32,000 nucleotides of DNA from Candidatus Saccharimonadota bacterium (GTDB lineage: Bacteria; Patescibacteriota; Gracilibacteria; BD1-5; UBA2023), in assembly GCA_963706795.1 (NCBI GenBank), contig OY970170.1:270001-302000 (forward strand). Reading direction: 5' to 3'. The translations under genes were made by a program, and so were the position numbers. Below the pieces are notes generated by a model. The model saw only the letters and a list, made by a program, of their open reading frames with translations. It did no database searches and was not told where the DNA came from. Of the stretch, positions 1,032 to 31,284 are shown in pieces (positions within the stretch are counted from its first letter, which is position 1; each line of letters starts with the position of its first letter).

Positions 1032-1077
1032 TCTACCAAAAAGATAAAAATATTTCTCACTCATAGAATCTCCTATT

Positions 1078-1108: not shown

Positions 1109-1156
1109 ATTTAAGCAAACCTATGCTACGAAGGACAAATATTCAGAATAAAGAAT

Positions 1157-1185: not shown

Positions 1186-1223
1186 CATACGTTGTTTCAA
1201 ATCAATCCAACAAGGAGAACGTA

Positions 1224-1640: not shown

Positions 1641-1651
1641 TGAATGAATTG

Positions 1652-1687
1652 AAAAACCCGAAGCATAATGCTTCGGGTTTATTTTTT
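1652..1687 (+). terminator. Rho-independent terminator
   Basis: aaaaa cccgaagc ataat gcttcggg tttatttttt. Confidence 0.8.
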
Positions 1688-1736
1688 AGAGAAATAACAT
1701 TTGCATCCCTACAAAAATCTCCTATCATTAAACCAT

Positions 1737-2060: not shown

Positions 2061-2064
2061 TCCT

Positions 2065-2556: not shown

Positions 2557-2568
2557 TTCACACTCAAT

Positions 2569-2595
2569 AAAAATGCACCGAAACGGTGCATTTTT
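2569..2595 (+). terminator. Rho-independent terminator
   Basis: aaaaa tgcaccg aaa cggtgca ttttt. Confidence 0.8.
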
Positions 2596-2750
2596 AAATA
2601 CGTGAATATTTCGTGAATAAGGACTCGTCCAAGCGAAACTGTATTGATAAAGCTCACTCGATATGTAAGATTTCTTCAACGTCAGTATTTCAGAAGATTC
2701 CTTCTGTAATGGGAAAAATTACAGAATACTTAGCAAAATTTAAATCACTT

Positions 2751-9456: not shown

Positions 9457-9966
9457 CTAGTCTCCGTGACGAGTAAAGCCACCTTTTGAATCACGCGTGC
9501 CTAAGTCGCCTTGTTCATTCCTTTGAAAAGAATTTTCTTGGGAATAGTACGATTCGGCATAGCGTGAATTATCAGAAGAACTGCCGGAGTTACCCTTCTT
9601 TTTGTCTCTACCAAAAAGAACTCCTATGATGATCACTACCGCAAGAATGATACCTTTCCACCATACACCAGTATCACCTTTCGTCTTTGTATATTCACCA
9701 TTTGCAATCTTCTGCTCGGCAGCTTCGATGTCTGCCTTGATCTTTTCGACTTGAGCAAGCTTGCTCTTGAGTCCATCAACAAGCGCTTCCTTGTTGTCGG
9801 ATGCATCGAACGCTTCAAAGAGGTCTTTAGCTTGAGCTTGAACTACACCTCTTTCTTTCTCAAGTTTTTTGATTGAACTCTGCAGTTCATCGAGTGTTGC
9901 TGCAGAAACTATGGCTGGATGCACGAAAAGTGCAACCAGGACTAACATCATCGATAAAACCTTCAT
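9457..9966 (-). CDS. Hypothetical membrane-anchored coiled-coil protein (signal peptide, helical ectodomain, TM, Ser/Gly-rich tail), 169 aa
   Basis: GGAGG lies 5 nt before the ATG at 9966. The N-terminus MKVLSMMLVLVALFVHPAIVSA looks like a signal peptide. A heptad-like region LDELQSSIKKLEKERG...KIKADIEAAEQKI follows, then a TM helix WWKGIILAVVIIIGVLFG, then RDKKKGNSGSSS. Confidence 0.65.
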   Translation of the reverse strand: MKVLSMMLVLVALFVHPAIVSAATLDELQSSIKKLEKERGVVQAQAKDLFEAFDASDNKEALVDGLKSKLAQVEKIKADIEAAEQKIANGEYTKTKGDTGVWWKGIILAVVIIIGVLFGRDKKKGNSGSSSDNSRYAESYYSQENSFQRNEQGDLGTRDSKGGFTRHGD

Positions 9967-10067
9967 CACAACCTCCAAATTGGTAGTTGAAAATATTTCT
10001 GTACTCTCGAAATAAGACGCAAGTTACACCTGTCGATTATCAGATGTAACCTTCAAATGAGCTAGAA

Positions 10068-10535
10068 TTAGTTTTTTCTCTTTTGAATCCTTTCTAAGAT
10101 TTCATACGCCTGTCTTTTAAGTTCGGCGTCTGTGGGTTTTTTAGGTTTCGTTTCTATTGGTTTCGTTTCAGGTTTTTTCTGAAATGAGATGGTATTATTA
10201 ATATCTGTACAGGTGCCTTCTTCCCATGGCCCATTCTTGAGTCGAATTTTACAAGCCCCATTGAGATCATTTTGATGCCAGATGCCCTGGAATTGTTTGC
10301 CGTTCGATAATGTATATGTACCAAACCCTTGGCGATACATTCCAGAAAAATTTCCTTCGTAACTATTTCCTGAGTTATCCAGAAAATAACCTATACCAGT
10401 TATACAATTTCCGCTAATACAACGTGGATCTTTTTTAATTTCCGGTGCATCGGGTTTTGTATATGAATACTTGCTCGATCCACATCCTGACAGACAAAAA
10501 ATGATGAACAAAGTCATCAAAGAAAGCAGTTTCAT
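10068..10535 (-). CDS. Lipoprotein with MORN-like repeats (155 aa)
   Basis: The lipobox MKLLSLMTLFIIFCLSGC is present. YEGNFSGMYRQGFGTYTLSNGKQFQGIWHQNDLNG resembles MORN repeats (YeGe...g.r.G.G.y...nG..y.G.w..n). The tail is K/P/E-rich. Confidence 0.7.
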   Translation of the reverse strand: MKLLSLMTLFIIFCLSGCGSSKYSYTKPDAPEIKKDPRCISGNCITGIGYFLDNSGNSYEGNFSGMYRQGFGTYTLSNGKQFQGIWHQNDLNGACKIRLKNGPWEEGTCTDINNTISFQKKPETKPIETKPKKPTDAELKRQAYEILERIQKRKN

Positions 10536-12392: not shown

Positions 12393-13625
12393 CTAGTTAT
12401 AGTTAACGTATACGTTTTGTGTATAGCTATTATTGCCTTTATCTCGTTCGAGGATGGCATTGAGTGTATCAACATCGGCTCGTACTGTGTAGCTTCCGCT
12501 GTAGTAGAGATACATGAGCGCGAACTGTACATAGACATCCTGACACGTGTTGGCAGCGAGACTCGACGAGAAATTTACGCTTCGTACCGTTCCGCCAATA
12601 GTGAGCTGGAGATTAGTAGTCGTACCCGAAGTCATGCTTGAACCGTTGTTGCAGACATTAACAATGAATTCTCGTGCGATTCCATTCTGCTTGATATTGC
12701 GAACTACAAGATCAGCACGGTTTTCGTAACAGCTCGAGTTATTGTTGTAGCAATTACTATTGTTGTAGTTGTAATTGCAGTTTCCATTATTGGAATTGTA
12801 GCAATTGTTGTTGTAGTTATTACTCGTATTGCAGTCGTAGTAATAATTTGAATTATTCGTCGAATTATTTGAACCGTTTACGTAGTCGAATGTGTTGTAT
12901 GTATTCGTCTTTGTACCAGAGCGATATCCAGTTCGGCATGGGTAGCAATTGCTGCCAGTACAGTAGGTACTGTATGAGTTTGTTCCAGCGTATGGATTCT
13001 CGCGATAGATGTAGACTACCCCATTGCTTGTATTTGATCCCTGCCCAAAGAATGGACCAGCAGGACTAAAATTAATCGGATCTACAGTAGACGTATTGTT
13101 GTAGTAAGAGCCATTATTGTACGAATTATTATTCGTTGGCTGATACCAAGTGGTTGCACTATTTGAATTTCCCCAGAGATCAGTCGAAGGATTATTAGAA
13201 ATCACTTCTCGATCAGTCATTGGAGTCGTTGATCGGAGGATGTATTTATTGTTACTTGTTTCGATCTCGCGGCGAGCTCCGTCCCATCGGATAGTTGCTA
13301 CGATATCGTAATTACGATCTGCAGGCTTCCCAAAAGTACCAGCCGAAGAAATCTCAAATGACTGACATCGTCCAGATTGGATAGACACTCCATCAATCGT
13401 GCGTTCTGCAGTTTTACCAACAGAGCCACGAAGTGAGAGGACAAGGCTTCCAAGACCATTGGCCGTATCTCCTCGATTACATACTGTGAGTGTGTATGTT
13501 CGAGCAGTTTTTTGAATAAATTGAGTGAGCTCAAGATCTGGCACTCCATCATAGAGCGCATTAAATCCAGCGAATGTGCTCATTGGAAGTGTAAGTGCGA
13601 GGATTGCGAGGAGAGCGCGACGCAT
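12393..13625 (-). CDS. Secreted protein with two CARDB-like domains flanking an Asn/Tyr/Cys/Ser-rich low-complexity core (410 aa)
   Basis: The signal peptide is MRRALLAILALTLPMSTFAG. The N-terminal PDLELTQF...YTLTVCNRGDTANG...ETSNNKY and the C-terminal ADLVVRNIK...FIVNVCNNGSSMTSG...ERDKGNNSYTQNV both fit the CARDB pattern (pDL.v......v.V.N.G.........E.ne.NN). Stop is TAG. Confidence 0.7.
   Translation of the reverse strand: MRRALLAILALTLPMSTFAGFNALYDGVPDLELTQFIQKTARTYTLTVCNRGDTANGLGSLVLSLRGSVGKTAERTIDGVSIQSGRCQSFEISSAGTFGKPADRNYDIVATIRWDGARREIETSNNKYILRSTTPMTDREVISNNPSTDLWGNSNSATTWYQPTNNNSYNNGSYYNNTSTVDPINFSPAGPFFGQGSNTSNGVVYIYRENPYAGTNSYSTYCTGSNCYPCRTGYRSGTKTNTYNTFDYVNGSNNSTNNSNYYYDCNTSNNYNNNCYNSNNGNCNYNYNNSNCYNNNSSCYENRADLVVRNIKQNGIAREFIVNVCNNGSSMTSGTTTNLQLTIGGTVRSVNFSSSLAANTCQDVYVQFALMYLYYSGSYTVRADVDTLNAILERDKGNNSYTQNVYVNYN
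12695..13175 (-). repeat. Low-complexity coding tract (N/Y/S/C-rich) inside the CARDB gene
   Basis: It encodes ...NNSYNNGSYYNNTS...NNSTNNSNYYYDCNTSNNYNNNCYNSNNGNCNYNYNNSNCYNNNSSCYEN. The DNA is dominated by AAT/AAC/TAC/TGC/AGT codon repeats. Confidence 0.6.
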
Positions 13626-13653
13626 ATTTTGACAAGTTATGATTACAGGGTCT

Positions 13654-13680
13654 ACTATAGTAAATAGTACGGATTGTCAA
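13654..13680 (-). promoter_or_regulatory. Possible sigma-70-like promoter of the CARDB gene
   Basis: On the minus strand: TTGACA (13675-13680), a 15-nt spacer, then TATAGT (13654-13659). The spacer is short, so this is tentative. Confidence 0.3.
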
Positions 13681-13726
13681 GTATAATATTCAGATATCTT
13701 TAAAATAAAAGCGGGGAACTGGTAAC

Positions 13727-13767
13727 AAAAAAACAGAGATTTTAAACATCTCTGTTTTTTAAAAAAA
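13727..13767 (-). terminator. Rho-independent terminator (bidirectional-looking) of CDS 13778..15430
   Basis: aaaaaa acagagat tttaaac atctctgt ttttt aaaaaaa. Confidence 0.75.
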
Positions 13768-13777
13768 TGCCACGTAT

Positions 13778-15430
13778 CTACACTTTTTTTAATTTCTTTG
13801 GTTCAATGATTTTCTCTACCTCCCTGCTGACAACGGTAGCATGGAGATCAGAGAGGATTTTATTCTCTGGATAGGCCTCAAGGAGAGATGAACAGGTTTC
13901 GATATTATTTTTGAGGCGATTAAGTGAAGAAAATATCTGCGAGAGTTTGGTATCTGCTTCTGAGATCTCCGCCACCGTAGCAAGACCCCTCATCTCTTTT
14001 GTTGTTTTATCAAAATCCGTGCGGTGCTGTCTAAAACCCAAATGATACGCCTCAAGGCTTAAAAATGTTGTCTGGAAAAGACGATAGCTCTCAACGGTCA
14101 TCGCGATAGTCTCGATAGCGCCACTAATAGCCTCTGTAATGTCCGCTTCGATAGGCGCTTCACCCTTGAGTTTTCGCAGGAGAACATCTTCTTTGCGCGG
14201 AGTATAACTGACTCAGCCGAGAGAGCTCTCAAGCATTTTTCGAATATTTTCTGGGCTTAAACCACCAATCTGAGATGCAATCAACTCACGATTTTTGAGA
14301 ATTTGCTGATTGAGAAGGGAAAGTTTGGCAAGAACCGTGCTGAGCTCGTGAACTTCGCTTTGGTACTGCGCGAGCTCATCTTCTTCTTGGCCAGATCTAT
14401 TTTCTTGTCTTACTGTTTTACGTTTATCTTGAGCTTTTTCAGGATCTTTGGCCTTTCGGAGGAGATTTCGAGGGTTGCTTCTGCGAGCAAGATTGTCTTC
14501 GTGCATAAGCACACGACCATTTACTCGTTCAGCGTTTGAGAGCATTTTTGGGTATTCGATCTCGAGACTTCGAGTTTGTTCAAATATTTCCTTAATCTTT
14601 AGAAACTCTTGCAGTGTCTGATCAGGATGTGCCTCAATAAATCTCTTGCGCGCTCTGTGAAGGGCTCCGCTCCATGATTCAATTCTTTTTTGAAGCGCTA
14701 ATTCCTGAAAAGCATTAAAAGAATCGAGTGGATATTTTTCGAGAACTTTGCTCTGCATTTGTTTTATTGCATCCTCTTGGATATCAACCTCTTCGAGCAA
14801 TTTACGGACATGAGCGCGGATATCGCTTGATACGAGCTGAGAAAGCCTCACGGACGAGGGAAACATCAAGAGGTCGAATTGCGAAGCCTTCTCTCATTCA
14901 GACTGTATTCCTAAGAGATCAAGAAGCACTGAAATTCTTGGCCTTGTATTGTGAGGATTAAGCTCGAGTGATTCATCTACCTTAAAAAGCACCTCTTGAT
15001 GCTTCGATATATCTTTTTTTGGCGTATCGTAACCGTATTTGTCACTGAGCATCATGATTACTGTTTCGAGAATGTTTTCTTTGGTGCTTTTTGTGCGCTC
15101 TTTGCGAGCAAAAAACTGCACAATAGGTGCAAATCGCTCTCCAAACAAATAATTTCTGAGTTGTCTCTTTTGGTCATCCGAGAGCGTATCGTCATCGATC
15201 TCGAGCTTATCTTCGATTTCGATAAATTTAGTGATCGCTTGCCAGATACCTTCTGCCATACTCTCGGCTGGTCGAGTCTGCTGCAGCGTCCATTTAGCGA
15301 GCTTTGGAGAAGGTTCTCCAAGAGCGACAACACCATTCATGCTAGACATATTGCGAAATTTATAGCCTAAATAACTTGTGTAGTAATACGCAGATACCCC
15401 ACTCGAGTCAAACGAATGTGATAATTTCAT
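13778..15430 (-). CDS. Hypothetical, predominantly helical or coiled-coil protein (550 aa, table 25), no family recognised
   Basis: Track ORFs 14894..15430, 14213..14869 and 13778..14101 share one frame (the 1653-nt span is divisible by 3). They are joined only by TGAs at 14894-14896 and 14213-14215, and the intervening codons contain no TAA or TAG. Stop is TAG, followed by a terminator. Confidence 0.65.
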
Positions 15431-15959: not shown

Positions 15960-18542
15960 ATGTACAGCGCCCGAGAGTCACCTTATGCACTCGAGTCTAT
16001 TCCTCAGAAGAGTTTTTCGCTGCGCGAAACAGCGCTTGCACTCTTTGGTGAAAATCAAGCGCGTAAAAAATCCTCTACCTATGAAAAATTCAAAGCAGAC
16101 TGGAAGCGAGATGCAAAAAAGCGACTTATTCTTGGTGTCACGCTCGCGGGATGAGCGATCATTGCAACAGCAACTGGAGCTACCGCTATAGCTGGCGCCA
16201 TGATTGCCACACGAGCTGCGATTGGCGCGATCTGAGGGTTTATCACCACCGAAGCGGCCTTTGATCTCGGAGCCCAAAAATTCGACGGATGAATGTTTAA
16301 AGAGCTCCTTCGTACAATCGAAGAATCCGACAATTTTGAAGAAGTACTCGAGGTGATTGCAAGGATCGAAAACGATCAGAGCATCGCCGATCTCGAGGCA
16401 GCATTCCAAAAGGCCGAAGAGAAAAACGAGCGTTTTAAGATGATACGCAAAATATCCGCCTGCACAGTTGGTGCTGTCATGTGAATTATTGGCGGATCTC
16501 ATGTGGCTGAGGCAGTCAATTGATTACCGACTATATCAGTCCAGTCAGAAATACATGCATCTCAAATTGCAGAAGTTTCTGATGTTCCAATTACTGATGA
16601 TATTTCTCCTGTGCCTCAGAATCTCAGTATTGAAAATACAGGAGATACTCAGCAGCAGCCCGTTACAAACAAACTCATAGACGAAGTATTTGCTGATATC
16701 AGATCCGATCACCCGACGCAAAATTATATTACGCTCGAACAGGCAGTGCGGCGCATCGAATGACTCAAACAAGGAATTTCGCTTACTGAAAGTGAAAAAC
16801 TCATTCCCATGAATTCGAGTATTTCATCACTCATACATGATCCGGACGGAAAAATTGTCCACATTATGAAGGATCTCGGATACCAAAATCCCAACGAAAC
16901 CGTTGATCACGCAGCTCGCAGACTGAGTTCCGAAAAAATACGCGTGATTCTGCAAAAATATTATGAAGAGGCACCACCAATCGAGATCGAGCAAGTATGA
17001 AGTCCTTCCTTAACTCAGCAAATCAGCATTCCGGAAGTCGCCTCAGAAGAAATTCATGAGAATATTGAGATTGCTCATCCCGAAACTGTAGTAACAGAGA
17101 TCGCAAAAATCGAACCAACCGCGATCCAAGTGTCATCATCCAATTCCCTGCTCTATACAATTGGTGCCTCAGTTATTGCGGTAGGAGTTGCGCTCGGCCT
17201 CATCTCAAAAAAGAAAGCGCGACAAACACGGGTTTCAAACTCAGATACTTCTGTTACAGCAGGACCGCCAGAGCCTACTACGACAGCTCCGAACACTACA
17301 GAAGAAGAGACATCATGAGCTCACATCACAGATACTCCCACAGAAACAACGATCCCTACAGAACCACCAACAGAAGTGTCTACTGAGTCTCCTTCGCAGC
17401 CAGACACTTCTGAGACCGCGGAAGATGCAAATCTATCAGACTCACTTCCTACAACTGAGACATTTCCTCCTGTAAATAATGCCGCACAAAAAACTCATAC
17501 TCCAAGCGCGGAAATCGCTTATGAATGAACACTCTACGACGAAATAGAGACAAGTCTTACCGAATGCTTTGAATGAGATTACAAATGGGTACGAGATGAT
17601 TCGAGGCAGCTTGAGACGACATCGGAGCGACGACTCGTCTTCATTGGGAATACGATTGGTGGAAACTTTGACGCACACGTATTACTTTCTGGATCGACCT
17701 ATCGAATTGCCATCATATGGTACGAAGATGATACACCCATCCATCATGAGGATTCAGGTATTCTCTCGCTCGAAGATATTCCGCAAGGAAGCAAGCAACA
17801 AGAATACCTGAGCCAAGAGATTGATGACGTCTTTTTTAGACTCCTTGATTTCCGTGAGGCGCAAAAAACTGCCGAGATGCGATCTCTTGAAAGTGTGGGG
17901 ATGTATAGAAGTGACCTCGCGAAAATATATGAGCAACTCGAACATCCAGAAATTCTTGCAAATAACTGGGAAACGGGTGGTTGGTGGTTCATGGATTGTT
18001 ACCGCATCAGGAATGGACACATCACCATGATCAATCTCAGAAATCCACCATTTGAAATCCTGGAAGTTTCATCGGTAGAGATGTCACTTCAGAAAAATGA
18101 AGCAGGATATAGCTATTTTAAAAGGAAGGTTGAGGATTTTATATCACTGAGTTACAGCGCAAAAGAGACTCTTTGGGCGATGCGACGCTACTCTGCAGAA
18201 AAACTTACTCATCCAAATGCGCTTCCTCCAGTGGGTATGGTATTTGATTATAACTGGCACAAACACTGTTCATCAACTCTCATGCACCCAAGTGGCGGGG
18301 ATATCAACGAAGCAGCGCCAGAAGCCTTTATAAAATCACCAAATCTACAGACATTTACATGGGCAATCGTCACGCCACTCTCGAGATCGGACTATATTCC
18401 CATGAGTCATCAGGTCATCTTTGGAGATGGTGCACGCAAATACGTACTGAGCCTTTGGGCTCTCAATAGAGATCCAGAGGACATTCATACCCGATATACT
18501 TACGAGGATCTGCGAACGATAAACGTTCGCATCATCGACTAG
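15960..18542 (+). CDS. Large membrane protein (860 aa, table 25): N-terminal Gly/Ala-rich TM region, a second TM, a Thr/Pro/Glu-rich linker and a C-terminal globular domain with a JAB/MPN-like metalloprotease motif (putative)
   Basis: Frame 0 is open from 15960 to the TAG at 18540-18542. It has 10 in-frame TGAs and no TAA or TAG (parsed codon by codon) and links track ORFs 15960, 16293, 16809, 17130 and 17877. The TM helices are AIIATATGATAIAGAMIATRAAIGAIGGFITT and LLYTIGASVIAVGVALGLISKKKAR. The C-terminus has NNWETGGWWF...ITMINLRNPP...VGMVFDYNWHKHCSSTLMHPSGGDI. There is no obvious SD, so the start is uncertain, and internal starts cannot be excluded. Confidence 0.6.
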
Positions 18543-18548: not shown

Positions 18549-18614
18549 GCACATTCGTGTGCCGGAAGGAGGGCGTTGCGCTATCGCTCTCCTTCCGGTG
18601 CAAGAATGCACCGG
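18549..18614 (+). promoter_or_regulatory. GC-rich structured intergenic element with mutually exclusive hairpins (possible attenuator, terminator or cis-regulatory RNA)
   Basis: H1 is gcaca-ttcg-tgtgc (18549-18562). H2 is ccggaaggag (18562-18571) pairing with ctccttccgg (18589-18598) around a 17-nt loop. H3 is ccggtgca-agaa-tgcaccgg (18595-18614). H2 and H3 compete for ccgg at 18595-18598. H3 is followed by attgttcatt. Confidence 0.4.
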
Positions 18615-18649
18615 ATTGTTCATTAACACTCTCAGAGAAAGGATACATC

Positions 18650-19156
18650 ATGCACTCTTTTTGGACTTTGCTCAAGGCAGATTTTCTTGCGGAGACACTG
18701 TCAAAAGTGCTCTTCTCAGGGAAGTACCCAAAACTGGTAGCGTTCATTATTTTGTTTTTTGTAGGCATCTATTTGTGTCTACGGCATCTATTGAGACTGA
18801 CTACTTGGATGGGACATTTGCCATTTAAGACTCAGTGGGTTCGAGCTTTTCGTTCGATCAAACAAACGGCAAGTGTGGCCAAAAAATTAGGCGACAAGGT
18901 GTCTCCTGCGGGCGGTAATAGTGACTATTTTGAGCTCGTGATTACGGGTTCAAATTGGGCACAACAAATCCACACGATACGCTACAGGATCAACAAACGA
19001 ACGGGGCTTTTAAATATTGTATTCTTACGACAGAATACCGAATTTCAGGCACATTATGCTTTTTTAATTCAGCACGCTGGCTTGGAACCTGGGTTCGAAA
19101 TGATCGCAGATTCCCTTCCACGTATTCATCAAAAAATCCGGACTAATTTACTGTAG
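18650..19156 (+). CDS. Hypothetical single-pass membrane protein (168 aa); first gene of the E2/E1 operon
   Basis: The ATG at 18650 follows gagaaaggatacatc (an SD-like AAAGGA). The TM helix is KLVAFIILFFVGIYLCL. The C-terminal domain of about 100 aa has no recognised family. Stop is TAG, 8 nt before the next gene. Confidence 0.55.
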   Translation: MHSFWTLLKADFLAETLSKVLFSGKYPKLVAFIILFFVGIYLCLRHLLRLTTWMGHLPFKTQWVRAFRSIKQTASVAKKLGDKVSPAGGNSDYFELVITGSNWAQQIHTIRYRINKRTGLLNIVFLRQNTEFQAHYAFLIQHAGLEPGFEMIADSLPRIHQKIRTNLL

Positions 19157-19164: not shown

Positions 19165-19413
19165 ATGAAATATATCATTGTTATTCTTTTTGTGCTCGTG
19201 TTTGCTGGATGTTCAACGCCAATGAATCAGACGCAATATTCGTCACCACAAAGGGTCAATTATACACAGAGGAACGAAGTACGAACCTCACCTTCCGCCG
19301 AATTCGATCTGGCCGAATATCTTTCGGAATTCTACCGAACACCGCAAGTGGTGGAATCACAGAGTCCACGCCTCAAAAAACGGCTTGATCGGATCAAAAA
19401 AGCAACGGAGTAA
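19165..19413 (+). CDS. Small lipoprotein (82 aa)
   Basis: SD taggag, the lipobox MKYIIVILFVLVFAGC and a TAA stop. The next gene starts 3 nt later. Confidence 0.7.
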   Translation: MKYIIVILFVLVFAGCSTPMNQTQYSSPQRVNYTQRNEVRTSPSAEFDLAEYLSEFYRTPQVVESQSPRLKKRLDRIKKATE

Positions 19414-19416: not shown

Positions 19417-20307
19417 ATGAAAATCTATATTTTTTGCCTGCTTCTCTTCCTTCCATTAAGTATTTACGCGAAGGAGTCGGCAAATATTGCCAGCATGAGA
19501 ATCTATCTAGAAACCATCAATCAAATACGAAAGGACGAACGAATCAAGGCTCAAAAGATATATGCGGCTTTTCGAGCGGGTGAACTCGATGAAGAAGATG
19601 CGGAGAAGGCATTCGATAAAATCGATACCCGAATCGAAACACTTAATAAAGAGAAAGAGTACATTGAGCAATCAATCATCCATGAACAAAAGAGCCTAGA
19701 TACCGTATCTCAAGATACTCCTTCTCCGCCTGTTGTTCCTGCTCAAGTGCTAAATATTTCTGCTTCAGATGCTGCTGCAAATCTGGACTACCCTCAGGTA
19801 AAAACTCCAACTCAGCCGCCTGCCCCGATTGTGAGACATGCGGGTTTAGCATTTTTGGATGGGGTTTTATATATCGGTCGGTTTATCCTGATCGCATTTT
19901 TTGTTGCCGTAACTGCAATCGTTGGAATTAAGGCCTATGTCTCAAAAACAAAGCCCAAAGAAACGACTGTGGAGACTCAAAGAATCCATTCAATCCGACA
20001 AATTGGAACATCTACACCTCAAAATCAAGAAGCTTTTACCTCAGAAACAAGCATTGTTCAGGCAGAAGAGGAAATTGAAGTTATAGATATTTCGTCCGAA
20101 CCCGAAGTTGCTGAAGAAATCAGTCCTGAAGTCATCACTCCAATTCCCGAAGCAGTAACGACGCCGACGGACACCTTGGACTCACCTCAGATTTTTGAAA
20201 CAACCGAAACAGTGACACTCGTGGACACGGATATTTTTGCAACGAAAGTTACTGAACATCCAGACATCCAGAATAGGCGCCATAGCGGCGAAATCACAAA
20301 CATCTAA
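19417..20307 (+). CDS. Hypothetical type-I membrane protein (296 aa): signal peptide, coiled-coil ectodomain, TM and an acidic Thr/Pro/Glu-rich cytoplasmic tail
   Basis: The signal peptide is MKIYIFCLLLFLPLSIYA. The helical region is RIYLETINQIRKDERIKAQKIYAAF...TRIETLNKEKEYIEQSI. The TM helix FILIAFFVAVTAIVGIKAYV is followed by SKTKPKE (positive-inside). The tail reads EPEVAEEISPEVITPIPEAVTTPTD.... Confidence 0.7.
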   Translation: MKIYIFCLLLFLPLSIYAKESANIASMRIYLETINQIRKDERIKAQKIYAAFRAGELDEEDAEKAFDKIDTRIETLNKEKEYIEQSIIHEQKSLDTVSQDTPSPPVVPAQVLNISASDAAANLDYPQVKTPTQPPAPIVRHAGLAFLDGVLYIGRFILIAFFVAVTAIVGIKAYVSKTKPKETTVETQRIHSIRQIGTSTPQNQEAFTSETSIVQAEEEIEVIDISSEPEVAEEISPEVITPIPEAVTTPTDTLDSPQIFETTETVTLVDTDIFATKVTEHPDIQNRRHSGEITNI

Positions 20308-20326: not shown

Positions 20327-20794
20327 ATGGAAGATACAGAATCTCTCCCAAACTGGATACGGCAGAATCCTGAAAGATTTCAGAAAAGACTCAAAGAGGA
20401 AGCAAAACTCCTCTATAAAGATTTTCCAAATCTGGGATTTTATCGAGATGGTCTTGTATTATATATAGAAGGACCGGTTGTCTCTCGAAGTTTTAACGCA
20501 TACAGAATTCGTGTGCGCTATCCCGAAGAGTATCCATACGCCCCAGCAGAAGGCTATGTGTTAGACCAGGATGTCCGTGATTATGCAAGAAACATAAGTG
20601 CTCATACACTTCATCATTACGGCGATACTGGGGATGAATGGGGTATGCAGCTCTGTTTGCAAGATATCAGCGAATGGAAGATCAATGACTCTGGTATTTC
20701 GATCGCGCAGTTTACGATCTTGTGGCTGAATGCTTATGAATTTTTTCGAATTAAGGGTTACTGGCCCCTCAGGGCTGGTGATTCAACATTTTAA
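20327..20794 (+). CDS. Ubiquitin-conjugating-enzyme (UBC/E2)-fold protein, prokaryotic E2-like (155 aa)
   Basis: SD aaagga precedes the start. The sequence aligns by eye along the whole UBC core. The N-terminal helix is RLKEEAKLLYKDFPNLGF. LYIEGPVVS...YRIRVRYPEEYPYAPAEGYVL corresponds to I.GP...pY.gg.f.l.i.fp.dYPf.pP.v.F. HHYGDTGDEWGMQLCLQDISEW corresponds to HPNi...G.ICLdiL...W, with the candidate catalytic Cys at 20654-20656. Confidence 0.75.
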   Translation: MEDTESLPNWIRQNPERFQKRLKEEAKLLYKDFPNLGFYRDGLVLYIEGPVVSRSFNAYRIRVRYPEEYPYAPAEGYVLDQDVRDYARNISAHTLHHYGDTGDEWGMQLCLQDISEWKINDSGISIAQFTILWLNAYEFFRIKGYWPLRAGDSTF

Positions 20795-20812: not shown

Positions 20813-21862
20813 ATGAAAGAAGAATACAAAATCCCTGGAATGCCTGATGTCGGAACACCTGGCAATCGCAGAAACATTCAAACAGAAGCACTCGAAAACA
20901 TGTTTCGAGAATTCAATAATGGTGAAGGTATGCTCATCACCCGAGAAGGTATGCCTATAGCCAAAAGCACGCTTCCTGGTAATCCGTCTGATTTTGCAGA
21001 ACTTCGCAATATTCGGACAAGTATGGCGGATGCAGACATTGCATCTAATCCGTATCATGCACCCAATCCACGCCGTGATACACTGATGCCACCTCTGCGT
21101 GGCAAATGTATGACGATCGTTGGTTTGGGTGGAGGAGCTAATATTCCTATTGAGCTCCTCAAATGTGGCGTAGATCATTTTCATTTGATTGACCATGATA
21201 TTCTGGAGCCGGCCAATGCCATTAGGCATCCCTGCTCCAAGCGATATTTTGGACTTCCAAAAGTCGAAGCCGTCAAACTCCATATGCTCGATCTCACTTC
21301 GCAAGAAGTCGAGATCACGGCGCATAACTACAATGTGTTTGATGACCGCAAAAAAACGATCGATATCATCGAGCAATCCGATGTACTCATTGTTGCGACT
21401 GACACCGAAGCTTCTCGGCATTTTCTTAATGAAATCGCAGTTAAAGCAGGTGTGCCAGCTGTATTTGTGGGTATGTTCGAAAATGGTTCTGGTGGCGAAA
21501 TCTTTGCCGCCTTGCCGGATGCGCCATGCTATTGCTGCCTGGCAGAACATCTGGGTCGCGAAAAATTCCTCACAGAATACCGCGAAACCACCAAAAAAGC
21601 GGACTGCAGTTCGGCCCGTGACACCTCAGCAATGCCGGCTCTCGGTATTGATCAGGGGCTTCTTGCGCTCATTGCAGCTCGTAAGTCCGTGGATATCCTT
21701 CTCTCTGGAGTGCAACACTCTCTCCCTCCACTCGGAGGTAATTGGATCATTTTTTCGATTTTCGGTATTCCAAAAATACTCGAGACATCGCTCTCATCGA
21801 TCCAATCCGACCTCACGCGACATCCTAAATGTTTCGCGTGTGGCGAACCAACGCTCACATAG
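20813..21862 (+). CDS. ThiF/MoeB-family E1-like adenylyltransferase (349 aa)
   Basis: A strong SD (aaggag) precedes the start. CMTIVGLGGGANIPIELLKCGVDHFHLIDHDILEPANAIRH...GLPKVEAVKLHMLDL...VEITAH...SDVLIVATDTEASRHFLNEIAVKAGVPAVFVG...GGEIF...PCYCCL aligns with E. coli MoeB: the nucleotide loop GLGG.G, the D.D....sNl.R motif, the ..TDn Asp and the first CxxC. A second CxxC (CFAC, 21830-21841) completes the zinc tetrad. An N-terminal extension of about 95 aa is uncharacterised. Confidence 0.85.
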   Translation: MKEEYKIPGMPDVGTPGNRRNIQTEALENMFREFNNGEGMLITREGMPIAKSTLPGNPSDFAELRNIRTSMADADIASNPYHAPNPRRDTLMPPLRGKCMTIVGLGGGANIPIELLKCGVDHFHLIDHDILEPANAIRHPCSKRYFGLPKVEAVKLHMLDLTSQEVEITAHNYNVFDDRKKTIDIIEQSDVLIVATDTEASRHFLNEIAVKAGVPAVFVGMFENGSGGEIFAALPDAPCYCCLAEHLGREKFLTEYRETTKKADCSSARDTSAMPALGIDQGLLALIAARKSVDILLSGVQHSLPPLGGNWIIFSIFGIPKILETSLSSIQSDLTRHPKCFACGEPTLT

Positions 21863-21880: not shown

Positions 21881-21912
21881 AAAATATCCCCTTCAACCGA
21901 AGGGGATATTTT
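21881..21912. terminator. Bidirectional rho-independent terminator between the E1-like and UPF0489 genes
   Basis: aaaa tatcccctt caaccg aaggggata tttt. Confidence 0.8.
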
Positions 21913-22621
21913 AATATTCAAAAACTCTCTTGAGCATATCAATTGCACGCGCTTGATCGATAAAAAACGGGCTCGTCGCGATCGTGATACATGAAACCTG
22001 TGAGGCAAAATGGAGAATGACTTCTTTTTTGAATGCAAAATCAATATCGTTGAGCTCAGGAGCAAAAAAATCAAGATCGAGATTAAGGATCGAATTTTTT
22101 GAAATCATCGAATGGCGCTCACGCGTAAGATCGCCTTCTCATTCGATACGAATCATCCGCCCAATGAGGCCTTCAGCCATGGCAGGCTTTATATAGTTGC
22201 CAACATTGCACTCAAAATTGGTAAATTCAAAGACCCTCCCCATATCGAGTGAGTCAGGTTTTTGAAGTGTGAAGGTATTCTCCCAAAGATCCGAATGCTC
22301 ATCGATGTGCACAAGGGTCGCCCCATCTTGGAGAATGCCATTTGATCGTGCTTCGTACCAAAAATAGAGCGCATGGTTGTGGTTATCAAAGATCGTAACT
22401 GGAATACCATTCCATGAGGTTGAAACAAAATTTTTGAGTCCATACGCCTCAATGCAACGACCATCATCCTCAGCTACAAACACAAGGTTTTTGCTCTCGC
22501 GCACGTCATCAAAACTTCATTTAATAAGTCCTGGTACCACCAATGCACCTTCCCATCCAAGTGGTGCAAGAGCACGATTCCCTTTTAAATCCGTGAGGAG
22601 GAACGAGTCACTATAGTGCAT
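21911..22621 (-). CDS. UPF0489-family protein (236 aa, table 25)
   Basis: Track ORFs 22139..22504 and 21911..22108 are in frame and joined by the TGA at 22139-22141. The frame extends upstream through the TGA at 22517-22519 to the ATG at 22621. The motifs FDNHNHALYFWY, LVHIDEHSDLW, NVGNYIKPAMAEGLI and LNLDLDFF match my recollection of UPF0489 (C5orf22-like: DH.e.L..., HfDsHpDl, LDIDLDfF). Confidence 0.65.
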
Positions 22622-23192
22622 GGCCTGACTCAAAAAGCGCATGAAGCTCTACAAGAGTAGACTCGATGTCCTCATTTACGATGCGAATATCATAAAAATG
22701 TCGCTCTTCCATCTCGACGAGTGCATTTGCATAGCGGATTTCGAGATCTTCAGGAGAATTCACACCACGTCCAATAAGCCTTGATTTGAGGACATCAAGC
22801 GATGGTGGCTCAAGAAAAATACTCGTCACTTCATATCCTGCATCCTCGAGCACTGGCTTGAGATGAACCATGCCTTGAGGATCGATGATATAGAGTGGTT
22901 TCTTACCAAGCTCTACAATGCGCTCAAGCTCCTCAAAAGTCGAGCCGTAATAGTTTCCATGCACAATTGCATATTCGATGAGTTTTTTGTCATGAATCGC
23001 CTCCTTAAAATTATCAGCGGACCAAAAATGGTAGTGTACGCCATCCACTTCTCATGGCCTCACTGCACGGGAAGTGGTAGTGATTACTTTTTCGATGCGA
23101 GTATCGGGATGTTCATATTTGTAAGTCTCCCAAACGGTGGTTTTACCAACGGCAGAAGGTCCTGAAAGAATGAAAACGTGTGGCTGATTCAT
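22611..23192 (-). CDS. gmk: Guanylate kinase (193 aa, table 25)
   Basis: The ATG at 23192 gives MNQPHVFILSGPSAVGKTTV...ITTTSRAVRPGEVDGVHYHFWS...YAIVHGNYYGS.... The P-loop and the TTR..RpGE.dG.dY.F motif are both present, with the RPGE Gly encoded by the TGA at 23052-23054. Its end overlaps the UPF0489 start by 11 nt. Confidence 0.92.
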
Positions 23193-24399: not shown

Positions 24400-27300
24400 T
24401 TATTCTACAACAACTTCCTTCCCTGCGCTTCGTCCGAAGACTTCTGAATTTGAGAATTCAAATACACGACTTGGGCGGACGGAATACGTACCTGCATGGG
24501 TCATACGAATGGTATATCCAAATCCATAATCCCCTCCATTCATCGAGTCTGCAGTAGCAAAATATCGATCATCACGATATTCTTCGTGGCTAAAGAGTTG
24601 CGTGCTGTAACTGTCTATTTCATGTCCAAGATTTGAAGCACGCGGACCTGCATTATCTGGAGAAGTCGGCACATTGATCGCGCTCGTATTCGCAACATCT
24701 TTACTCTCAGTTGCGAGCACTGTATTCACCAGCTCGGAACCTGCAGGAATAAATCATTCGAAGGCTGGTTGGCTGCGATCCTCGCTCGTGATGAGACGAT
24801 TATATGCGTAGACGAGATCACCGATCTTAAATTTAGTCTGTGTCGTGAGATAGGTCACGATCTCTTTCGGATATTTAAGTGCGCTGTATTCGATCTCACC
24901 ATTTGCATATTTTGCCCATTCTTCATTTTTGAGGGCTTCTATTTTTTTGAAATCCTTGAGGAGATAATACGTTGTATCAACATAGAATCCTTCATCTCGA
25001 GCAGCAATATTCTTAGCTGGAATCGTGTATGCAAGTGAGAGATCGTAATAGAGGGTTCCCTTTCCTTCCTTCTCAAACGTAAATGTCGTGTTTGTAGGAA
25101 GCGAAGAAGCCAGCATATTTTGTGAGAAGACTCCAAAACGGTCACTTCCTGTAATTTTTTTCTCAACGAGGAGATTGCCATCGGATTTTACACGGGCGAT
25201 CATATCGACATTTTTGAGTTCGCCAGTGCTTGTGAGATACGTCCCCAGCGCTCGAATAATTGCGGCGGTTTCTTCGGTAGTTCCGTAGCTTCCATCAGAA
25301 TTTTTAGTATTGAGGAGGAAGCGATTCATATTATCAAGAACCATATCAACATCCGTAAACGAAGATCGTCCGAGCATAGTTACTGCCTCGATAAATGACG
25401 CGGTATTTTCGATACGAGAATATTCTCCATCACCCCCAACGAATGCTCCGCGAGGATTGATCACTACATCATTTTTAAGAATCGTATCGATGCGTGATTT
25501 TGCCTCCACCTGCATAGACTTTTTGTCTGTCTCTGGGATATCTCGTTGTGCTACAAGCACTGCAATCGTACGAAGCTCTGCAAAAATATCAGAAGGCGTA
25601 AACTTAGAATTATCGATGAGCTTGTACATCTTGAGAACTTCCGTGTCTGATGGAGTAATGGCAAGAATGGATTCTATAGCTGCAAGGCGATAAGATTCTG
25701 GATATTTACAATCGTATGTCGGCTTTGGAATGCAACCCTCAAATTTACCATCATAGAATCGAGATTTGAGATATTTAATAGCGTTGGACTCGAGCTTTTG
25801 ATCGATCGCAAATCCGAGTGATTTGAGGTCAGCGAGTGTGCGAACCACATACGACGTGAGTTTAAAATCCGCGGTCGTGTTATTGGTTGTATTCCAATAA
25901 ACAAATCCACCAGAATTTTTCTGAACATCACCGATCGTTGCAATATAATCGAGCATCGTTTGCTTGATCGAAACATTCGTATATCCCGTTTGTGCATCGA
26001 CATATCTTGGTATCGTGTGTGTGACAAGATCAAATGGCTCACCAATGGCAGTATAGAGTTTTTTGAGCTCGATATTTGGCACAAGCATACTCGTCTTTTG
26101 CCATGTTCCGCCGTATGGATATTCATTAAGCTGCTTCATTCCCTGTGCGAGCGAACCAAGGAGCGACGTGCTGTAATTGATCTGTACTCGTGCATCTTTT
26201 GAGAGACCACCGAGCACAAGTCGCTCGTCGACAGATTTATCTGTAGTCTTACCAATCGTAGCCGTACGCTCAGGAGTAGACGGCATGAGAATAGGAAGAA
26301 TATTCTCCACCTGATCTTCATTGCCCTTGGCATCGACCGCCTTAAAGGTAATCTTTGAAGCAAATGCTGGTGCTTCGTCGAGATTAGAATGTGGTACAAG
26401 TTTAAATCGAGCAACGGCAGATTCACCATTTTTGATGAAGAGTTTTGTACCACCTGTATCAATGTCCGCATTATCAGCACTCGCAGTGATCGTGATATTT
26501 GCATCTTCACCCGTCTTATTAAAGATCACTGGTGCGAGCATAACACTATCGCCAGACACTAGGAATCGTGGAAGATTCTCAGATACGAGCACCGCCTTGG
26601 TAGTCATGATGCTGGTCTTACCCACGCCGATACGATTATCGACTGGAGTTGATACTACCGACTCAATGACCCAAGTTGTGAGATTATCCGGAAGCTTATC
26701 CGCCGAGATTTTTGCCTCACCGTTGGCGTCGGTACTAAAATCAGATTTCCAAAATGCAGTATCCTTAAATACTCCTCGCTTCTTTTTGGCATCACCTCAT
26801 TTTGTACCATCTCCGGCACCTCCCTTCTCACCATTTCAGGTATTTTTTACCTCGAGTTTTTCGATGAGATTAACCAGTGAGATATGAGTAGTAACGCCCA
26901 GATAGCGTTTCATGTCATAAAAGAAGGCAAACGGATTTTTTTGTGGATTTCCCATGAGTGCGAGCACACTCTCATCAACGATCGAGAGTGAACCATTCGC
27001 ATCTTTTACCGGATTGCCATTTGCATCCTTCACCCTAACAGTCACATCAACCGCATCACCTGGCAGATATCGAGTCTTGGATGGGATAACTTCTACAGAG
27101 AGTTTTTTGTCATCCGATATCACCTTGAGTACCGCGAGTGCACGCTTGTAGACTGGTAGTTCCATCTTGTCGTCCTGACCGATGAGGTAGACCTTTACGT
27201 AGACATTGGGGATATAGCTCATCTGGATCGGCACCTCAATGCGCTCTGTGTAGCTCGTAATATCCTTGGTATAGCTATCGAGGATGGCTTCATCTTTTTC

Positions 27301-30300: not shown

Positions 30301-31284
30301 CGTATTAAAACTGAGTGGAATCCCCTTCAATGGAGAAAAATTCTGTGAAGGAGTTAACACTTCGAGTCTTGGAGTCTCAAAAGTAGCAGTTTTCGTCTCG
30401 GAAAGTGGATAAAGTAAACCTTCTCTGGAAGCTACCTTAATATCAAATTTTGTCGCGTATGGAAGTGGATTTGTTGGCACAAATTCAAGAATCGATCCAT
30501 TCGTCCAATTACATTTTCATTCCACTGCCGGAGTAATCTCGAGCGGACATGGCAGCGCATCTTTATTCGCCAAACTCGCAAGCGGAATCATTGGAATATT
30601 AAAAAGCACAACGATATTTTTACTCACATTTGCAAGTCGCCCATCAGGCATGATGCGCATAGCTTTTGCTCCAGCGATTGCCTCTATCTCGTAGGTGATA
30701 TCCTGTCCGAGCTTTGTTCCGTATTTGGATTTAATATCGCCTGAGAGAGTAATCGTGTAGTGATCTCCGATTTTAAGCTTGTTCGAGAGTTTGTAAGAGA
30801 TGATATTCCCATCTTTGAGAGAAGCTTCTCCTGCTACATATGGTGCAAATCGGACACTTTCTTTGGTGATCGAACCCGCATCGAGTTCTTTCGAAAATGT
30901 AATATCGATCGATGGTACGTCGTATGGAATCTTTTTGTATTCAAAGCTCCAATTACCAGCTACCACCGAAGGCGCAGCCAGGAAATATTGAGCACCAAAT
31001 ATTCCGACAGCCACAACAACAATCGCGGCAAATGCTCCAGAATATATCTTGGTATGTGCCATAAAGTTAGCACGAATCCGAGCAAAGAAGCCTTCGCCCT
31101 TTTTGATCTGAATGCCATCTTTAAGAAGCTCTTCTTTGAGCTTCATCGCAAATTGCTGGTCGAATTTTGTATCGGGTTTTTCGGCAAGCAGGGTTTTGAT
31201 GGCTTTCATAATTTCTTTTTTATGATCGGCGAGAGACGGGTCTACAGCGACGAGCTCTTCAAAGATTTTTGCAGCTGATTTCAT
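24400..31284 (-). CDS. Giant membrane-anchored alpha-2-macroglobulin-family protein (2,294 aa, table 25) with an anti-sigma-like cytoplasmic N-terminus and no thioester motif
   Basis: Seven track ORFs (30517..31284, 29113..30480, 28516..28980, 27769..28305, 26836..27429, 24754..26625, 24400..24729) share one frame (the 6885-nt span is divisible by 3). All gaps were parsed codon by codon and contain only TGAs, 8 in total (24754, 26797, 26836, 27634, 27769, 28516, 29113, 30517). Hallmarks are the MG2-like DRPIYRPGDKIQFKG, the A2M-domain RGVFKDTAFWKSDFSTDANGEAKISADKLPDNLTTWVIESV, the thioester-site context LNEYPYGGTWQKTS, and the C-terminal PAFEGFIPAGSELVN. The N-terminus is about 75 helical residues followed by the TM helix IYSGAFAAIVVVAVGIFGAQYFL. 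Confidence 0.85.

Follow-up and report, generated by a model that had tools for sequence, protein, structure and literature searches.

The locus considered here raises the question of whether a large membrane protein, encoded close to genes for ubiquitin-like conjugation enzymes, carries a JAB/MPN-type zinc peptidase at its C-terminus and, in that case, which substrate an enzyme of this kind might process. The gene occupies positions 15960..18542 of the window (the whole stretch of 32,000 nucleotides that was analysed) and, like all features given with coordinates below except one bidirectional hairpin, lies on the + strand. Translated with table 25, it codes for an 860-aa protein with a C-terminal JAB domain. 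The ORF includes 10 in-frame TGA codons, all within codons 1-539. UGA is a sense codon across the window, as TGA read-through raises the number of ORFs of at least 150 aa from 36 to 63 and also gives a 2,294-aa gene. The codon is read as glycine: UGA columns of the alignment pair with Gly in relatives, and the motif ETGG, for example, appears as 'ETWW' under table-4 translation. No tRNA genes, which would allow a direct check of this decoding, were found in the window. At full length, the relatives measure 778-906 aa and have the same architecture as the window protein.

The motif strings by which the sequence-only reading had recognised a JAB-like domain are all present where it had placed them. 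The first, NNWETGGWWF (aa 668-677, nt 17961-17990), includes Glu671 in E-T-G-G-W-W (17970..17972), which is the proposed general base. The second, GHITMINLRNPPFEIL (aa 686-701, nt 18015-18062), contains the strand-end motif N-L-R-N-P (aa 692-696, 18033..18047), for which the family consensus is N-L-x-N-P with an invariant Pro. The third, HKHCSSTLMHPSGGD (aa 767-781, 18258..18302), reads H767-K-H769-x8-S778-x2-D781 and thereby represents the JAMM zinc-ligand/oxyanion signature with one extra residue. Both peculiarities pointed out at the time were also confirmed, as the His-to-Ser spacer counts 8 residues and the distance from Glu to HxH is long, 96 residues. In the AF2 model described below, this distance results from a two-helix elaboration and short strands inserted among the canonical elements.

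Conservation of the same residues in orthologues had been proposed as a check, and it argues against a chance resemblance. Specifically, an exhaustive HMMER search provided 34 relatives of the window protein, and this 34-member family shows no variation at Glu, HxH, Ser or Asp, apart from a single degenerate copy (P0030). The family consensus is E-T-G-G-F-W ... N-W-H-K-H-P-x5-P-S-x2-D, and the canonical H-x-H-x7-S-x2-D spacing is found in 19 of the 22 motif-bearing sequences, one being that of the soluble L022 lineage. The window protein has a Cys after HxH where the family usually has Pro, and it shares the x8 spacer, a sub-clade variant, with P0035, P0006 and P0019. The domain might instead be a catalytically inactive MPN scaffold (MPN-minus), devoted to partner binding only, an idea to which P0030, with Asp in place of Glu and Tyr in place of the first His, and the deviating spacing of the window protein lend some appeal. 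Yet all members but P0030, the window protein included, keep the five catalytic positions, which is not as expected of a pseudoenzyme, and independent lineages share the x8 variant; an inactive scaffold is therefore very improbable.

Structure prediction and fold searches were the second check put forward by the sequence-only reading. From the family alignment, AF2 gave a model with a pLDDT of 91.6 and a pTM of 0.87, in which the order of the elements is that of an MPN domain, with the Glu just ahead of a beta-strand, HxH ending a strand and S..D opening the next helix; a model from the single sequence reached a pLDDT of 30.5 and was left out of the fold search. In the PDB, the top Foldseek match of the family model, and the sole credible one, was 5cw3_B from an MPN complex (prob 0.98, E 2.3e-3, 229 aligned columns). 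The match is modest (TM 0.29/0.35, rmsd 7.3), no PDB match reached E <=0.001, and all those following 5cw3_B had E values of at least 0.25, while the viral library returned just small-fragment matches to uncharacterised proteins. The entry 5cw3 is the BRCC36/KIAA0157 MPN heterodimer, a eukaryotic soluble K63-specific deubiquitinase complex, and the match, at 10% sequence identity, is at the fold level only. In BRCC36, the Glu-to-HxH distance is also unusually long. On the whole, the model provides moderate, not strong, support for an MPN fold, and neither check, of conservation or of fold, spoke against the JAB reading.

Profile searches with the family point to the same class of enzymes. All 16 PADLOC families matched by the relatives are JAB families of the CBASS type; a single model matches as many as 9 of 20 members, and the best E value is 9.5e-6. 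Compared with PDB sequences, the family profile matched 9ild_A ('Peptidase') on WHxHP..PSxxD with E 0.0037; a literature search did not reveal what 9ILD is. Moreover, hhalign aligned the family to a soluble, E2/E1-linked JAB lineage with 94.5% probability (E 7e-8, 49 columns), and no similarity to this lineage was detected for the Glu-bearing half alone (prob 0.2%). Sequence similarity to known JABs is limited to 25-49 residues around HxH..S..D. Single-sequence searches with the window protein or its C-terminal domain gave no match in Pfam, NCBIfam, PADLOC or PDB sequences. In particular, Pfam Prok-JAB (PF14464) did not match the window protein even at E up to 1-10, and its scores for relatives (12-17 bits) and for L022 (20 bits), from alignments that span only profile positions ~70-99, did not reach the cut-off of 25. 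A word-indexed search of 5.8-billion proteins found the window protein alone, profile searches with a JAB-only alignment reached no annotated JAB family, and a literature search found no paper describing this JAB family.

It could be argued, from the curated family thresholds that are never reached, from the N-terminal half of the domain that shows no profile similarity to the JAB lineage and from the modest fold-search score, that the likeness of the motif is coincidental and that a different fold, or another kind of hydrolase merely located beside E1/E2, is encoded here. The chance that this is so is nevertheless minimal, as independent tools converge on JAB/MPN and on nothing else, the exact JAMM spacing is found in most members, the predicted element order is that of MPN and the linkage to E2/E1 is conserved. 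Most likely, residues 643-860 form a genuine, though highly diverged, JAB/MPN+ zinc peptidase domain, as judged from the alignment and the predicted fold.

The layout of the whole protein suggests how such a domain would be held at the membrane. After a K/R-rich N-terminus, hydropathy and charge bias indicate a Gly/Ala-rich hydrophobic hairpin, TM1-TM2 (aa 56-97, 16125..16250), at positions that are hydrophobic in relatives too, followed by TM3 (aa 164-184, 16449..16511), whose charge bias (K+R = 5 before and 0 after) is that of an in-to-out segment. The region from aa 185 to 395 (16512..17144) would accordingly be extracytoplasmic. This predicted domain matched no family. Within the N-terminal part, conservation is highest in a segment of this domain, FADIRxDHPxQxYxTLEQAVRRIEGL, with tblastn E values down to 1e-37 across loci. 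The last hydrophobic segment, TM4 (aa 396-416; 17145..17222 including the residues that follow), leads directly into KKKAR (aa 417-421, 17208-17222), which would place all downstream parts in the cytoplasm. The cytoplasmic location assigned to the JAB side by the earlier reading thus agrees with the positive-inside charge bias. Following a low-complexity Pro/Thr/Glu-rich linker (aa 422-556, 17223..17627), where the model begins with low pLDDT values, a four-strand beta-meander and a long helix (aa 557-642, 17628..17885; E18-59 and H72-103 in AF2 domain numbering), conserved in relatives, precede the MPN core (aa 643-860, 17886..18539), which is supported by alignment, AF2, Foldseek, PADLOC and hhalign. 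Within the core, the two-helix elaboration mentioned above (aa 714-750, 18099..18209; AF2 helices 175-192 and 195-211 in domain numbering) separates the Glu strands from the strand that bears HxH.

The genes downstream bear on the function of the domain. The JAB gene had been described as lying directly upstream of the E2/E1 genes, which is not the case: three small membrane or lipoprotein genes on the same strand intervene (18650-19156, 19165-19413 and 19417-20307). A gap of 107 nt, with a terminator-like hairpin (18594..18615, 9-bp stem, consensus match only), separates the JAB gene from the first of them, and from there through the E1 gene the spacers measure 3-19 nt. The first gene, g21, encodes a protein of 168 aa with one TM segment and a conserved C-terminal domain whose last residues are L-R-x-N-x-L. 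In six related loci a g21-like gene directly follows the JAB gene, and in L002 and L012 one is found at another place in the module. The second encodes an 82-aa lipoprotein (lipobox L-V-F-A-G-C), with positional equivalents in L003 and L020. The third, g23, encodes what we call the tail protein, consisting of a signal or TM segment, a coiled coil, a TM segment and a cytoplasmic tail.

The assignment of the E2 and E1 genes is well founded. The E2 gene (20327..20794) codes for a 155-aa protein of the CBASS type (PADLOC E2, 1.5e-8), whose orthologue in L001 matches Pfam E2-CBASS, and its candidate catalytic residue, Cys110 in Q-L-C-L (20654-20656), is also found in the E2s of L003, L020 and L022. 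A lone 'Cyclase' match (E 0.0068) falls on this E2, at model positions 426-535 of 542. The E1 gene (20813..21862) codes for a 349-aa ThiF/Cap2-like adenylating enzyme (Pfam ThiF, 6.9e-21; PADLOC Cap2-type E1-E2, 8.7e-27; also matched in NCBIfam), with a G-L-G-G-G nucleotide loop (21122-21148) and two C-x-x-C pairs (21524-21541 and 21827-21844). A bidirectional terminator-like hairpin (21889..21905), between the E1 gene and a convergent UPF0489 gene, likely marks the end of the gene block.

This linkage is conserved. A DNA pattern search gave 23 loci, and in 25 related loci from Gracilibacteria/Peribacteria the JAB gene is accompanied by an E1 gene in 15, by an E2 gene in 11 and by a g21-like gene in 8, with sequence ending at the block edge in most of those where no E1/E2 is visible; L003 and L020 show full synteny with the window module. 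Together with the conserved motif and the predicted fold, the conserved linkage supports the original idea of a membrane-tethered JAB working with E2 and E1. As for the classical E1-E2-JAB triad that had been proposed, the three enzymes are indeed linked, but profiles from Pfam, PADLOC and NCBIfam, searched at E up to 1, detected no Ubl, ThiS/MoaD or DUF6527 in the module genes; a cryptic beta-grasp fold in g21 is conceivable. Usual proximity to E2/E1 genes points to an undescribed membrane-bound conjugation module that lacks a recognisable ubiquitin gene.

The closest known counterpart is type II CBASS ('6b') with its Cap2 and Cap3 proteins, as CBASS JAB models are the only library models matched by the family and the neighbouring E2 and E1 match CBASS E2 and Cap2-type models. 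The likeness may extend to the modifier. The E1 of type II CBASS acts, with no Ubl involved, on the C-terminal tail of cGAS, which is disordered and ends in Gly (10.1101/2022.03.31.486616). The module has no recognisable beta-grasp Ubl and encodes a protein whose C-terminal tail contains a conserved Gly. The g23 tail, R-R-H-S-G-E-I-T-N-I (20275..20304, Gly291 at 20287-20289), is cytoplasmic by charge bias, on the same side as the JAB domain. It conforms to the pattern [DNS]-G-x-[VI]-[PST]-x-x-[LI]-x-stop, which 10 of 15 distinct CPR loci contain, always adjoining E2 or E1; as a regular expression, the pattern matches 17 of 1,309 open frames, 10 of them tail proteins. The motif was not found in five loci where E2 is out of view or in the upstream membrane proteins of the soluble L022 system, and the JAB-E1 gaps of L007, L011, L016 and L018 hold no small tail-protein ORF. 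The literal 'HSGE' tail occurs in the three closest loci only, and the bodies of the tail proteins vary fast among loci. Other features differ from CBASS. Specifically, E2 and E1 are separate ORFs in the window, whereas Cap2 is an E2-E1 fusion; Cap3 is a soluble protein of ~160 aa, whereas the window-type JAB forms the C-terminus of a four-TM protein of ~800-900 aa and adds the beta-meander/helix module and the two-helix elaboration; the module has no CD-NTase or nucleotide-activated effector; and the Gly of its candidate substrate, a membrane protein, is internal, with 5-9 residues after it.

The explanation that best accounts for these observations as a whole, and that we hold with good confidence, is that residues 643-860 are a cytoplasmic, membrane-held JAB/MPN+ zinc metallopeptidase of an Ubl-like conjugation module with separate Cap2-like E2 and E1, proposed to operate on the g23 tail as follows. 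Zinc would be bound by His767, His769 and Asp781, with a water molecule activated by Glu671 and the intermediate stabilised by Ser778. The modifier would probably be the disordered cytoplasmic C-terminal tail of g23, encoded immediately before E2. The JAB domain would cut after the conserved Gly (...RRHSG|EITNI), thereby exposing it, and/or would later strip the tail from its targets. The exposed Gly would then be adenylated by E1, carried as a thioester on Cys110 of E2 and finally joined to a membrane target. That g23 is the protein trimmed and conjugated is suggested by its tail motif and by the position of its gene.

The residues that follow the tail Gly could equally be a docking motif rather than a leaving group, and this leads to a possible, if rather unlikely, alternative, in which the JAB is purely a Cap3-like deconjugase, a negative regulator that frees targets of the modifier and has no role in precursor processing. 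The residues after the Gly would then serve for docking or regulation, or else E1 would act on a different protein. The CBASS JAB models that are the closest library matches of the family fit such a role, and g21-like proteins also possess a conserved extreme C-terminus, L-R-x-N-x-L. On the other hand, the tail Gly is never C-terminal, as 5-9 residues always come after it, and E1 enzymes of the ThiF/MoeB/Uba group require a free C-terminal carboxylate, normally that of Gly or of another small residue. The C-termini of the JAB protein, of E2 and of g21 were considered as E1 substrates and rejected: these proteins finish in a beta-strand (the JAB protein among them) or in Leu (the g21-like proteins among them) and have no conserved Gly there.

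Trimming by the JAB domain, as preferred here, has parallels. QbsD and Mec+ (CysO pathway) are JAMM enzymes that trim C-terminal residues or adducts of a ThiS/MoaD-like protein for a ThiF/MoeB-type E1, which is the logic proposed for the g23 tail; their substrates, however, are beta-grasp sulfur carriers of soluble biosynthetic pathways that work with no E2. The Bil (BilA-D) and Bub (type I BubAB/BubCD/BubE) systems share with the module the gene set of E1, E2 and JAB/JAMM. In Bub, a JAB domain cleaves a pre-protein and exposes its reactive C-terminus (PMC11601596), the same role proposed for the window JAB. Nevertheless, both Bil and Bub encode a beta-grasp Ubl, which was not seen in the window module, nor were the tandem IAD-AAD-CYS domains of the Bil E1 or the DUF6527 protease and JAB-E1 fusion of Bub, and neither system is known to have a membrane-anchored JAB. 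The soluble lineage detected by hhalign consists of L022, from an Anaerolinea MAG with an E2 / JAB-fusion / E1 operon, and six relatives (P0041-P0046). It has in common with the window family the distinctive G-N-W-H-K-H-P-G-x5-PS-x-G-D signature and the E2/E1 neighbours. It differs in having no TM segments and a classical short distance between E-T-G-E-S-L-V-G and HxH, and its JAB is joined to a C-terminal domain of an unrelated kind.

The kinship with CBASS could also indicate a role in anti-phage defence, of the abortive-infection type, for a module that would descend from type II CBASS and would not be a housekeeping envelope pathway. The tail protein would then be the effector, primed by conjugation and restrained by the JAB. 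PADLOC models derived from CBASS are matched by E2, E1 and the JAB alike, a weak holin-like match (E 0.0018) falls on the membrane protein that L022 encodes ahead of E2, the fast variation of the tail-protein bodies is in line with such a function, and E1/E2 are UGA-free in UGA-rich genomes, like most predicted Gracilibacteria phages. We regard this scenario as unlikely, if worth bearing in mind: Pfam and PADLOC searches found no CD-NTase or known effector, and no model for either matched any of the six genes of the module or those flanking it; the surroundings consist of housekeeping genes and are no defence island; and the module is widespread and partly syntenic over the whole CPR clade, which looks more like vertical inheritance.

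To our knowledge, the bacterial ubiquitin-like conjugation systems characterised to date, namely type II CBASS, Bil and Bub, are soluble, and we know their JAB only as a small free protein or fused to E1. The module is unusual in that its JAB is fixed in the membrane behind an extracytoplasmic domain, in that neither a Ubl nor a CD-NTase was recognised in it and in that the tail of a membrane protein is apparently the modifier. It is restricted to one clade of CPR bacteria, which are tiny and depend on hosts. If confirmed, the preferred reading would extend the Cap2-type principle of Ubl-free conjugation past immune signalling enzymes to envelope proteins and would offer a tractable case of transmembrane control over a deubiquitinase-like enzyme. 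A broader proposal, tentative and on balance doubtful, is that Gracilibacteria/Peribacteria possess a membrane-embedded ubiquitin-less pathway, in which the cytoplasmic tail of a membrane or surface protein serves as the modifier, is trimmed after the conserved Gly by a sensor-like four-TM JAB and is ligated by a split Cap2/ATG7-like E1 and an ATG3/10-like E2 to a membrane-proximal protein or conceivably a lipid. The pathway may even be wired to the genetic code, with UGA-free genes for E1, E2, the tail protein and g21 set against an antagonistic, UGA-rich JAB gene; if so, a loss of UGA decoding, for example during infection, would tip the balance towards conjugation.

The avoidance of UGA in E1/E2 is a separate, statistically robust oddity, which might be a sign of gene regulation that depends on the genetic code, or of genes moving between lineages with different codes. 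The E1 and E2 genes are nearly UGA-free in genomes that use UGA as a common Gly codon (P ~1e-61). Recent horizontal transfer was rejected as the sole cause, since the GC3 of E1 is equal or close to that of the host in L001, L007 and L011 while the gene has 0, 0 and 1 TGA codons, respectively.

The C-terminus of the 860-aa membrane protein carries a putative JAB/MPN+ motif, for which the alignment of its family is decisive. The encoding ORF (15960-18542, plus strand) contains 10 in-frame TGA, all within the first 539 codons, and the window is broken up under table 11. When TGA is read as sense, ORFs of at least 150 aa increase from 36 to 63, and a 2,294-aa ORF with 8 in-frame TGA (24400-31284, minus strand) is seen only under table 25; from this gain it follows that the organism recodes UGA. 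Moreover, TGA positions in the window align with Gly in relatives, as, for example, in E-T-G-G. No tRNA gene is found in the window, and a UGA-decoding tRNA is therefore unseen. All the strings cited by a sequence-only reading, which had made the JAB/MPN-like assignment, are found in the translated ORF, namely Glu671 (17970-17972), GHITMINLRNPPFEIL (18015-18062), H767-K-H769-x8-S778-x2-D781 (18258-18302) and KKKAR (17208-17222), all on the plus strand.

Taken alone, the window protein has no match in Pfam, NCBIfam or PADLOC, nor among PDB sequences, and a word-indexed protein database search returns the self-match only. An exhaustive HMMER search yields 34 relatives, several of them of 778-906 aa with the domain C-terminal, whose consensus is L-E-x-P-E...E-T-G-G-F-W-F...N-L-x-N-P...N-W-H-K-H-P-x5-P-S-x2-D. 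The Glu, both His, the Ser and the Asp are invariant, so that the conservation in orthologues implied by a catalytic role is borne out, barring one degenerate copy, P0030, where Asp replaces the catalytic Glu and Tyr the first His (D...Y-K-H), so that it is probably a pseudo-peptidase. The 8-residue His-to-Ser spacer, pointed out earlier as a deviation, is real and recurs in the family members P0035, P0006 and P0019, the exact JAMM spacing H-x-H-x7-S-x2-D being present in 19 of the 22 motif-bearing sequences. In PADLOC, all 16 families matched by family members are CBASS-type JAB (at most 9 of 20 members per model; best E 9.5e-6); Pfam Prok-JAB is matched below threshold, and the family profile aligns with PDB 9ild_A 'Peptidase' at W-H-x-H-P...P-S-x-x-D (E 0.0037). 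These library alignments cover only 25-45 residues at the active-site strand and helix. No model of this JAB family exists in any library examined, and no published description was found in a literature search. One Gracilibacteria contig (JANJWP010000024.1; loci L014 and L017) bears two paralogous membrane-JAB genes.

AF2 on the window sequence alone was useless, and the model used was obtained with the family alignment (pLDDT 91.6, pTM 0.87). Its elements succeed one another as beta-alpha, a strand directly after the Glu, more strands, helices, the strand ending in HxH, the helix starting with S..D and four strands; as modelled, this is the MPN order. Invariance and predicted structural position point to Glu671 as the probable catalytic Glu. 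The Glu-to-HxH distance, already noticed as long, is 96 residues, the length being made up in the model by two inserted helices (aa 714-750) and short strands, and a four-strand beta-meander with a long helix (aa 557-642) precedes the JAB core. When an MPN/JAB fold was sought with Foldseek against the PDB, the best match and sole outlier was the BRCC36-KIAA0157 MPN complex 5cw3_B (prob 0.98, E 2.3e-3, 229 aligned columns, TM 0.29/0.35), all other matches having E of at least 0.25; the viral library was uninformative for this model. The domain is predicted, with high confidence, to be a diverged MPN+ peptidase.

Hydropathy and charge bias predict an N-terminus inside, a Gly/Ala-rich hairpin (aa 56-97) and then a cytoplasmic loop. 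TM3 (aa 164-184; five K+R before, none after) would lead to an extracytoplasmic domain (aa 185-395; 16512-17144, plus strand) that includes the best-conserved N-terminal motif, and TM4 (aa 396-416) is followed by KKKARQTR. The linker, the beta-meander and the JAB domain are predicted on the cytoplasmic side, in agreement with the orientation previously deduced from the KKKAR after the last TM. E1 and E2, being signal-less and ATP-dependent, must act in the cytoplasm, the side predicted for JAB. The domain at aa 185-395 matches no known family and might serve in sensing or in interactions; it holds the family's most conserved stretch, FADIRxDHPxQxYxTLEQxVRRIEGL (tblastn E down to 1e-37).

Downstream lie the genes for E2 (20327-20794, plus strand; CBASS E2 models 1.5e-8), whose orthologue at locus L001 carries Pfam E2-CBASS, and E1 (20813-21862, plus strand; ThiF-type 6.9e-21, closest to the Cap2 E1 module at 8.7e-27). 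The JAB gene does not directly precede them, as had been stated, three small same-strand genes being interposed: g21 (18650-19156), a lipoprotein gene (19165-19413) and g23 (19417-20307). Intergenic gaps from g21 to E1 are of 3-19 nt, with one hairpin after the JAB gene and one after E1. A DNA signature scan of GTDB species genomes gave 23 loci, mostly in Gracilibacteria, Peribacteria and 'Patescibacteria group' MAGs, plus one Anaerolinea contig. The linkage to E2/E1 is conserved: among 25 loci, 15 have E1 adjacent to the JAB gene, 11 have E2 and 8 have a g21-like gene, most of the others being cut at block edges. Loci L003 and L020 share the window order, in which membrane-JAB is followed by g21, lipoprotein, g23-like, E2 and E1 and, convergent to these, by a UPF0489 gene. 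In the window the latter (21911-22642, minus strand; Pfam 1.9e-9) is convergent to E1, which it also adjoins in L003, L019 and L020; it may reflect synteny alone or be a seventh component. The locus is not in a defence island, as the flanking genes (FemAB, glucosaminidase/NlpC-P60, 5'-3' exonuclease, dUTPase, guanylate kinase, sigma factor) are housekeeping.

Of the E1-E2-JAB triad suggested by the sequence-only reading, the JAB beside E1/E2 stands, in a module without a Ubl match: Pfam, NCBIfam and PADLOC give no Ubl, ThiS/MoaD, CD-NTase or effector match to any module gene. The original observation is confirmed and its interpretation supported; past 'JAB peptidase acting with E2/E1', the mechanism is one that we infer. 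JAB, CBASS-type E2 and Cap2-like E1 are known kinds, and their arrangement is not known. Specifically, E2 and E1 are split, JAB would sit at the cytoplasmic C-terminus of a protein with four TM segments and an extracytoplasmic domain, and the module, in which no CD-NTase, effector or Ubl is recognised, has a membrane protein as candidate modifier.

This membrane protein, immediately upstream of E2 (8 loci) or E1 (2 loci), combines a conserved end with an unconserved body. The tail follows the pattern [DNS]-G-x-[VI]-[PST]-x-x-[LI]-x-stop and lies in the window at 20275-20304, within the protein encoded at 19417-20307 (RRHSGEITNI before the stop), with equivalents in L001 (NIDGRVPVDLL), L002 (RFDGRISDDLI), L003, L004 (SYNGTVPKNLV), L009 (RADGVVRDSSLY), L012 (RDNGVIPEDIV), L017 (SASGDVPDSFH), L019 (PRDGEVPEGLS) and L020 (LHSGEVPNHLT). 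The tail expression matches 17 of 1,309 open frames, 10 of which are the tail protein; the motif was not found in 5 loci with E2 out of view or in the soluble lineage L022. Charge bias predicts the tail on the cytoplasmic side. Type II CBASS has no Ubl, its E1 acting on the disordered, Gly-terminated tail of cGAS (10.1101/2022.03.31.486616). From this precedent and the conserved tail we infer a trimmed and ligated substrate: JAB would trim the tail by cutting behind its conserved Gly, and/or deconjugate it, and E1 and E2 would ligate it to some target. This reading, drawn by analogy, is tentative and falls somewhat short of even chances, with the tail protein as a candidate Ubl-less modifier. 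A second pair, consisting of a lipoprotein (155 aa) and a signal/coiled-coil/TM protein (169 aa), lies at 9457-10535 (minus strand) and resembles the lipoprotein and g23 architecture; it does not carry the Gly-tail motif, its last residues being GGFTRHGD.

The DNA signature also located L022, a small, unannotated soluble lineage with six relatives, in an Anaerolinea sp. MAG (GC 0.57), where E2 (146 aa), a JAB fusion (396 aa) and E1 follow in this order at 904-3434. This lineage serves as a bridge in the JAB assignment: profile-profile comparison of the family with it gave 94.5% probability (E 7e-8, 49 columns); with the Glu-bearing half alone, zero similarity was detected. The fusion carries the same GNWHKHPG..PSxGD signature as the family. 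Two paralogous membrane proteins precede the module, and one of them shows weak similarity of a holin-like kind (E 0.0018).

The use of TGA was compared in eight heavily recoded loci (L001, L002, L004, L007, L011, L016, L018, L021), where the JAB gene and unrelated neighbours have about 5-8 TGA per 100 codons, and 66-100% of the Gly-type codons of the JAB gene are TGA. For the E1 genes of these loci, 145 TGA would be expected over 2,337 codons and 2 are present (P about 1e-61); for the E2 genes, 26.5 would be expected over 455 codons and 0 are present (P about 1e-12). The one g21-like gene has 0 in 178, and the three tail-protein genes (L001, L002, L004) have none. In the window, 10 of the 30 Gly-type codons within the first 539 codons of the JAB gene are TGA, as against 0 of 71 for the JAB domain together with the five genes downstream. 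Some loci have E1 and E2 of higher GC content, and base composition does not fully explain the scarcity of TGA; as GC3 equals or approaches that of the host in L001, L007 and L011, recent transfer alone is insufficient. The scarcity may stem from selection for translation that does not depend on UGA decoding, from traffic across the code boundary or from a bias in expression. Predicted Gracilibacteria phages are mostly TGA-free too (PMC10746230). Finally, a 488-codon open frame with extreme Asn/Ser/Tyr low-complexity repeats (NNSNYYYDCNTSNNYNNNCYNSNN...) at 12393-13859 (minus strand) is antisense to a 416-codon frame with 9 TGA.
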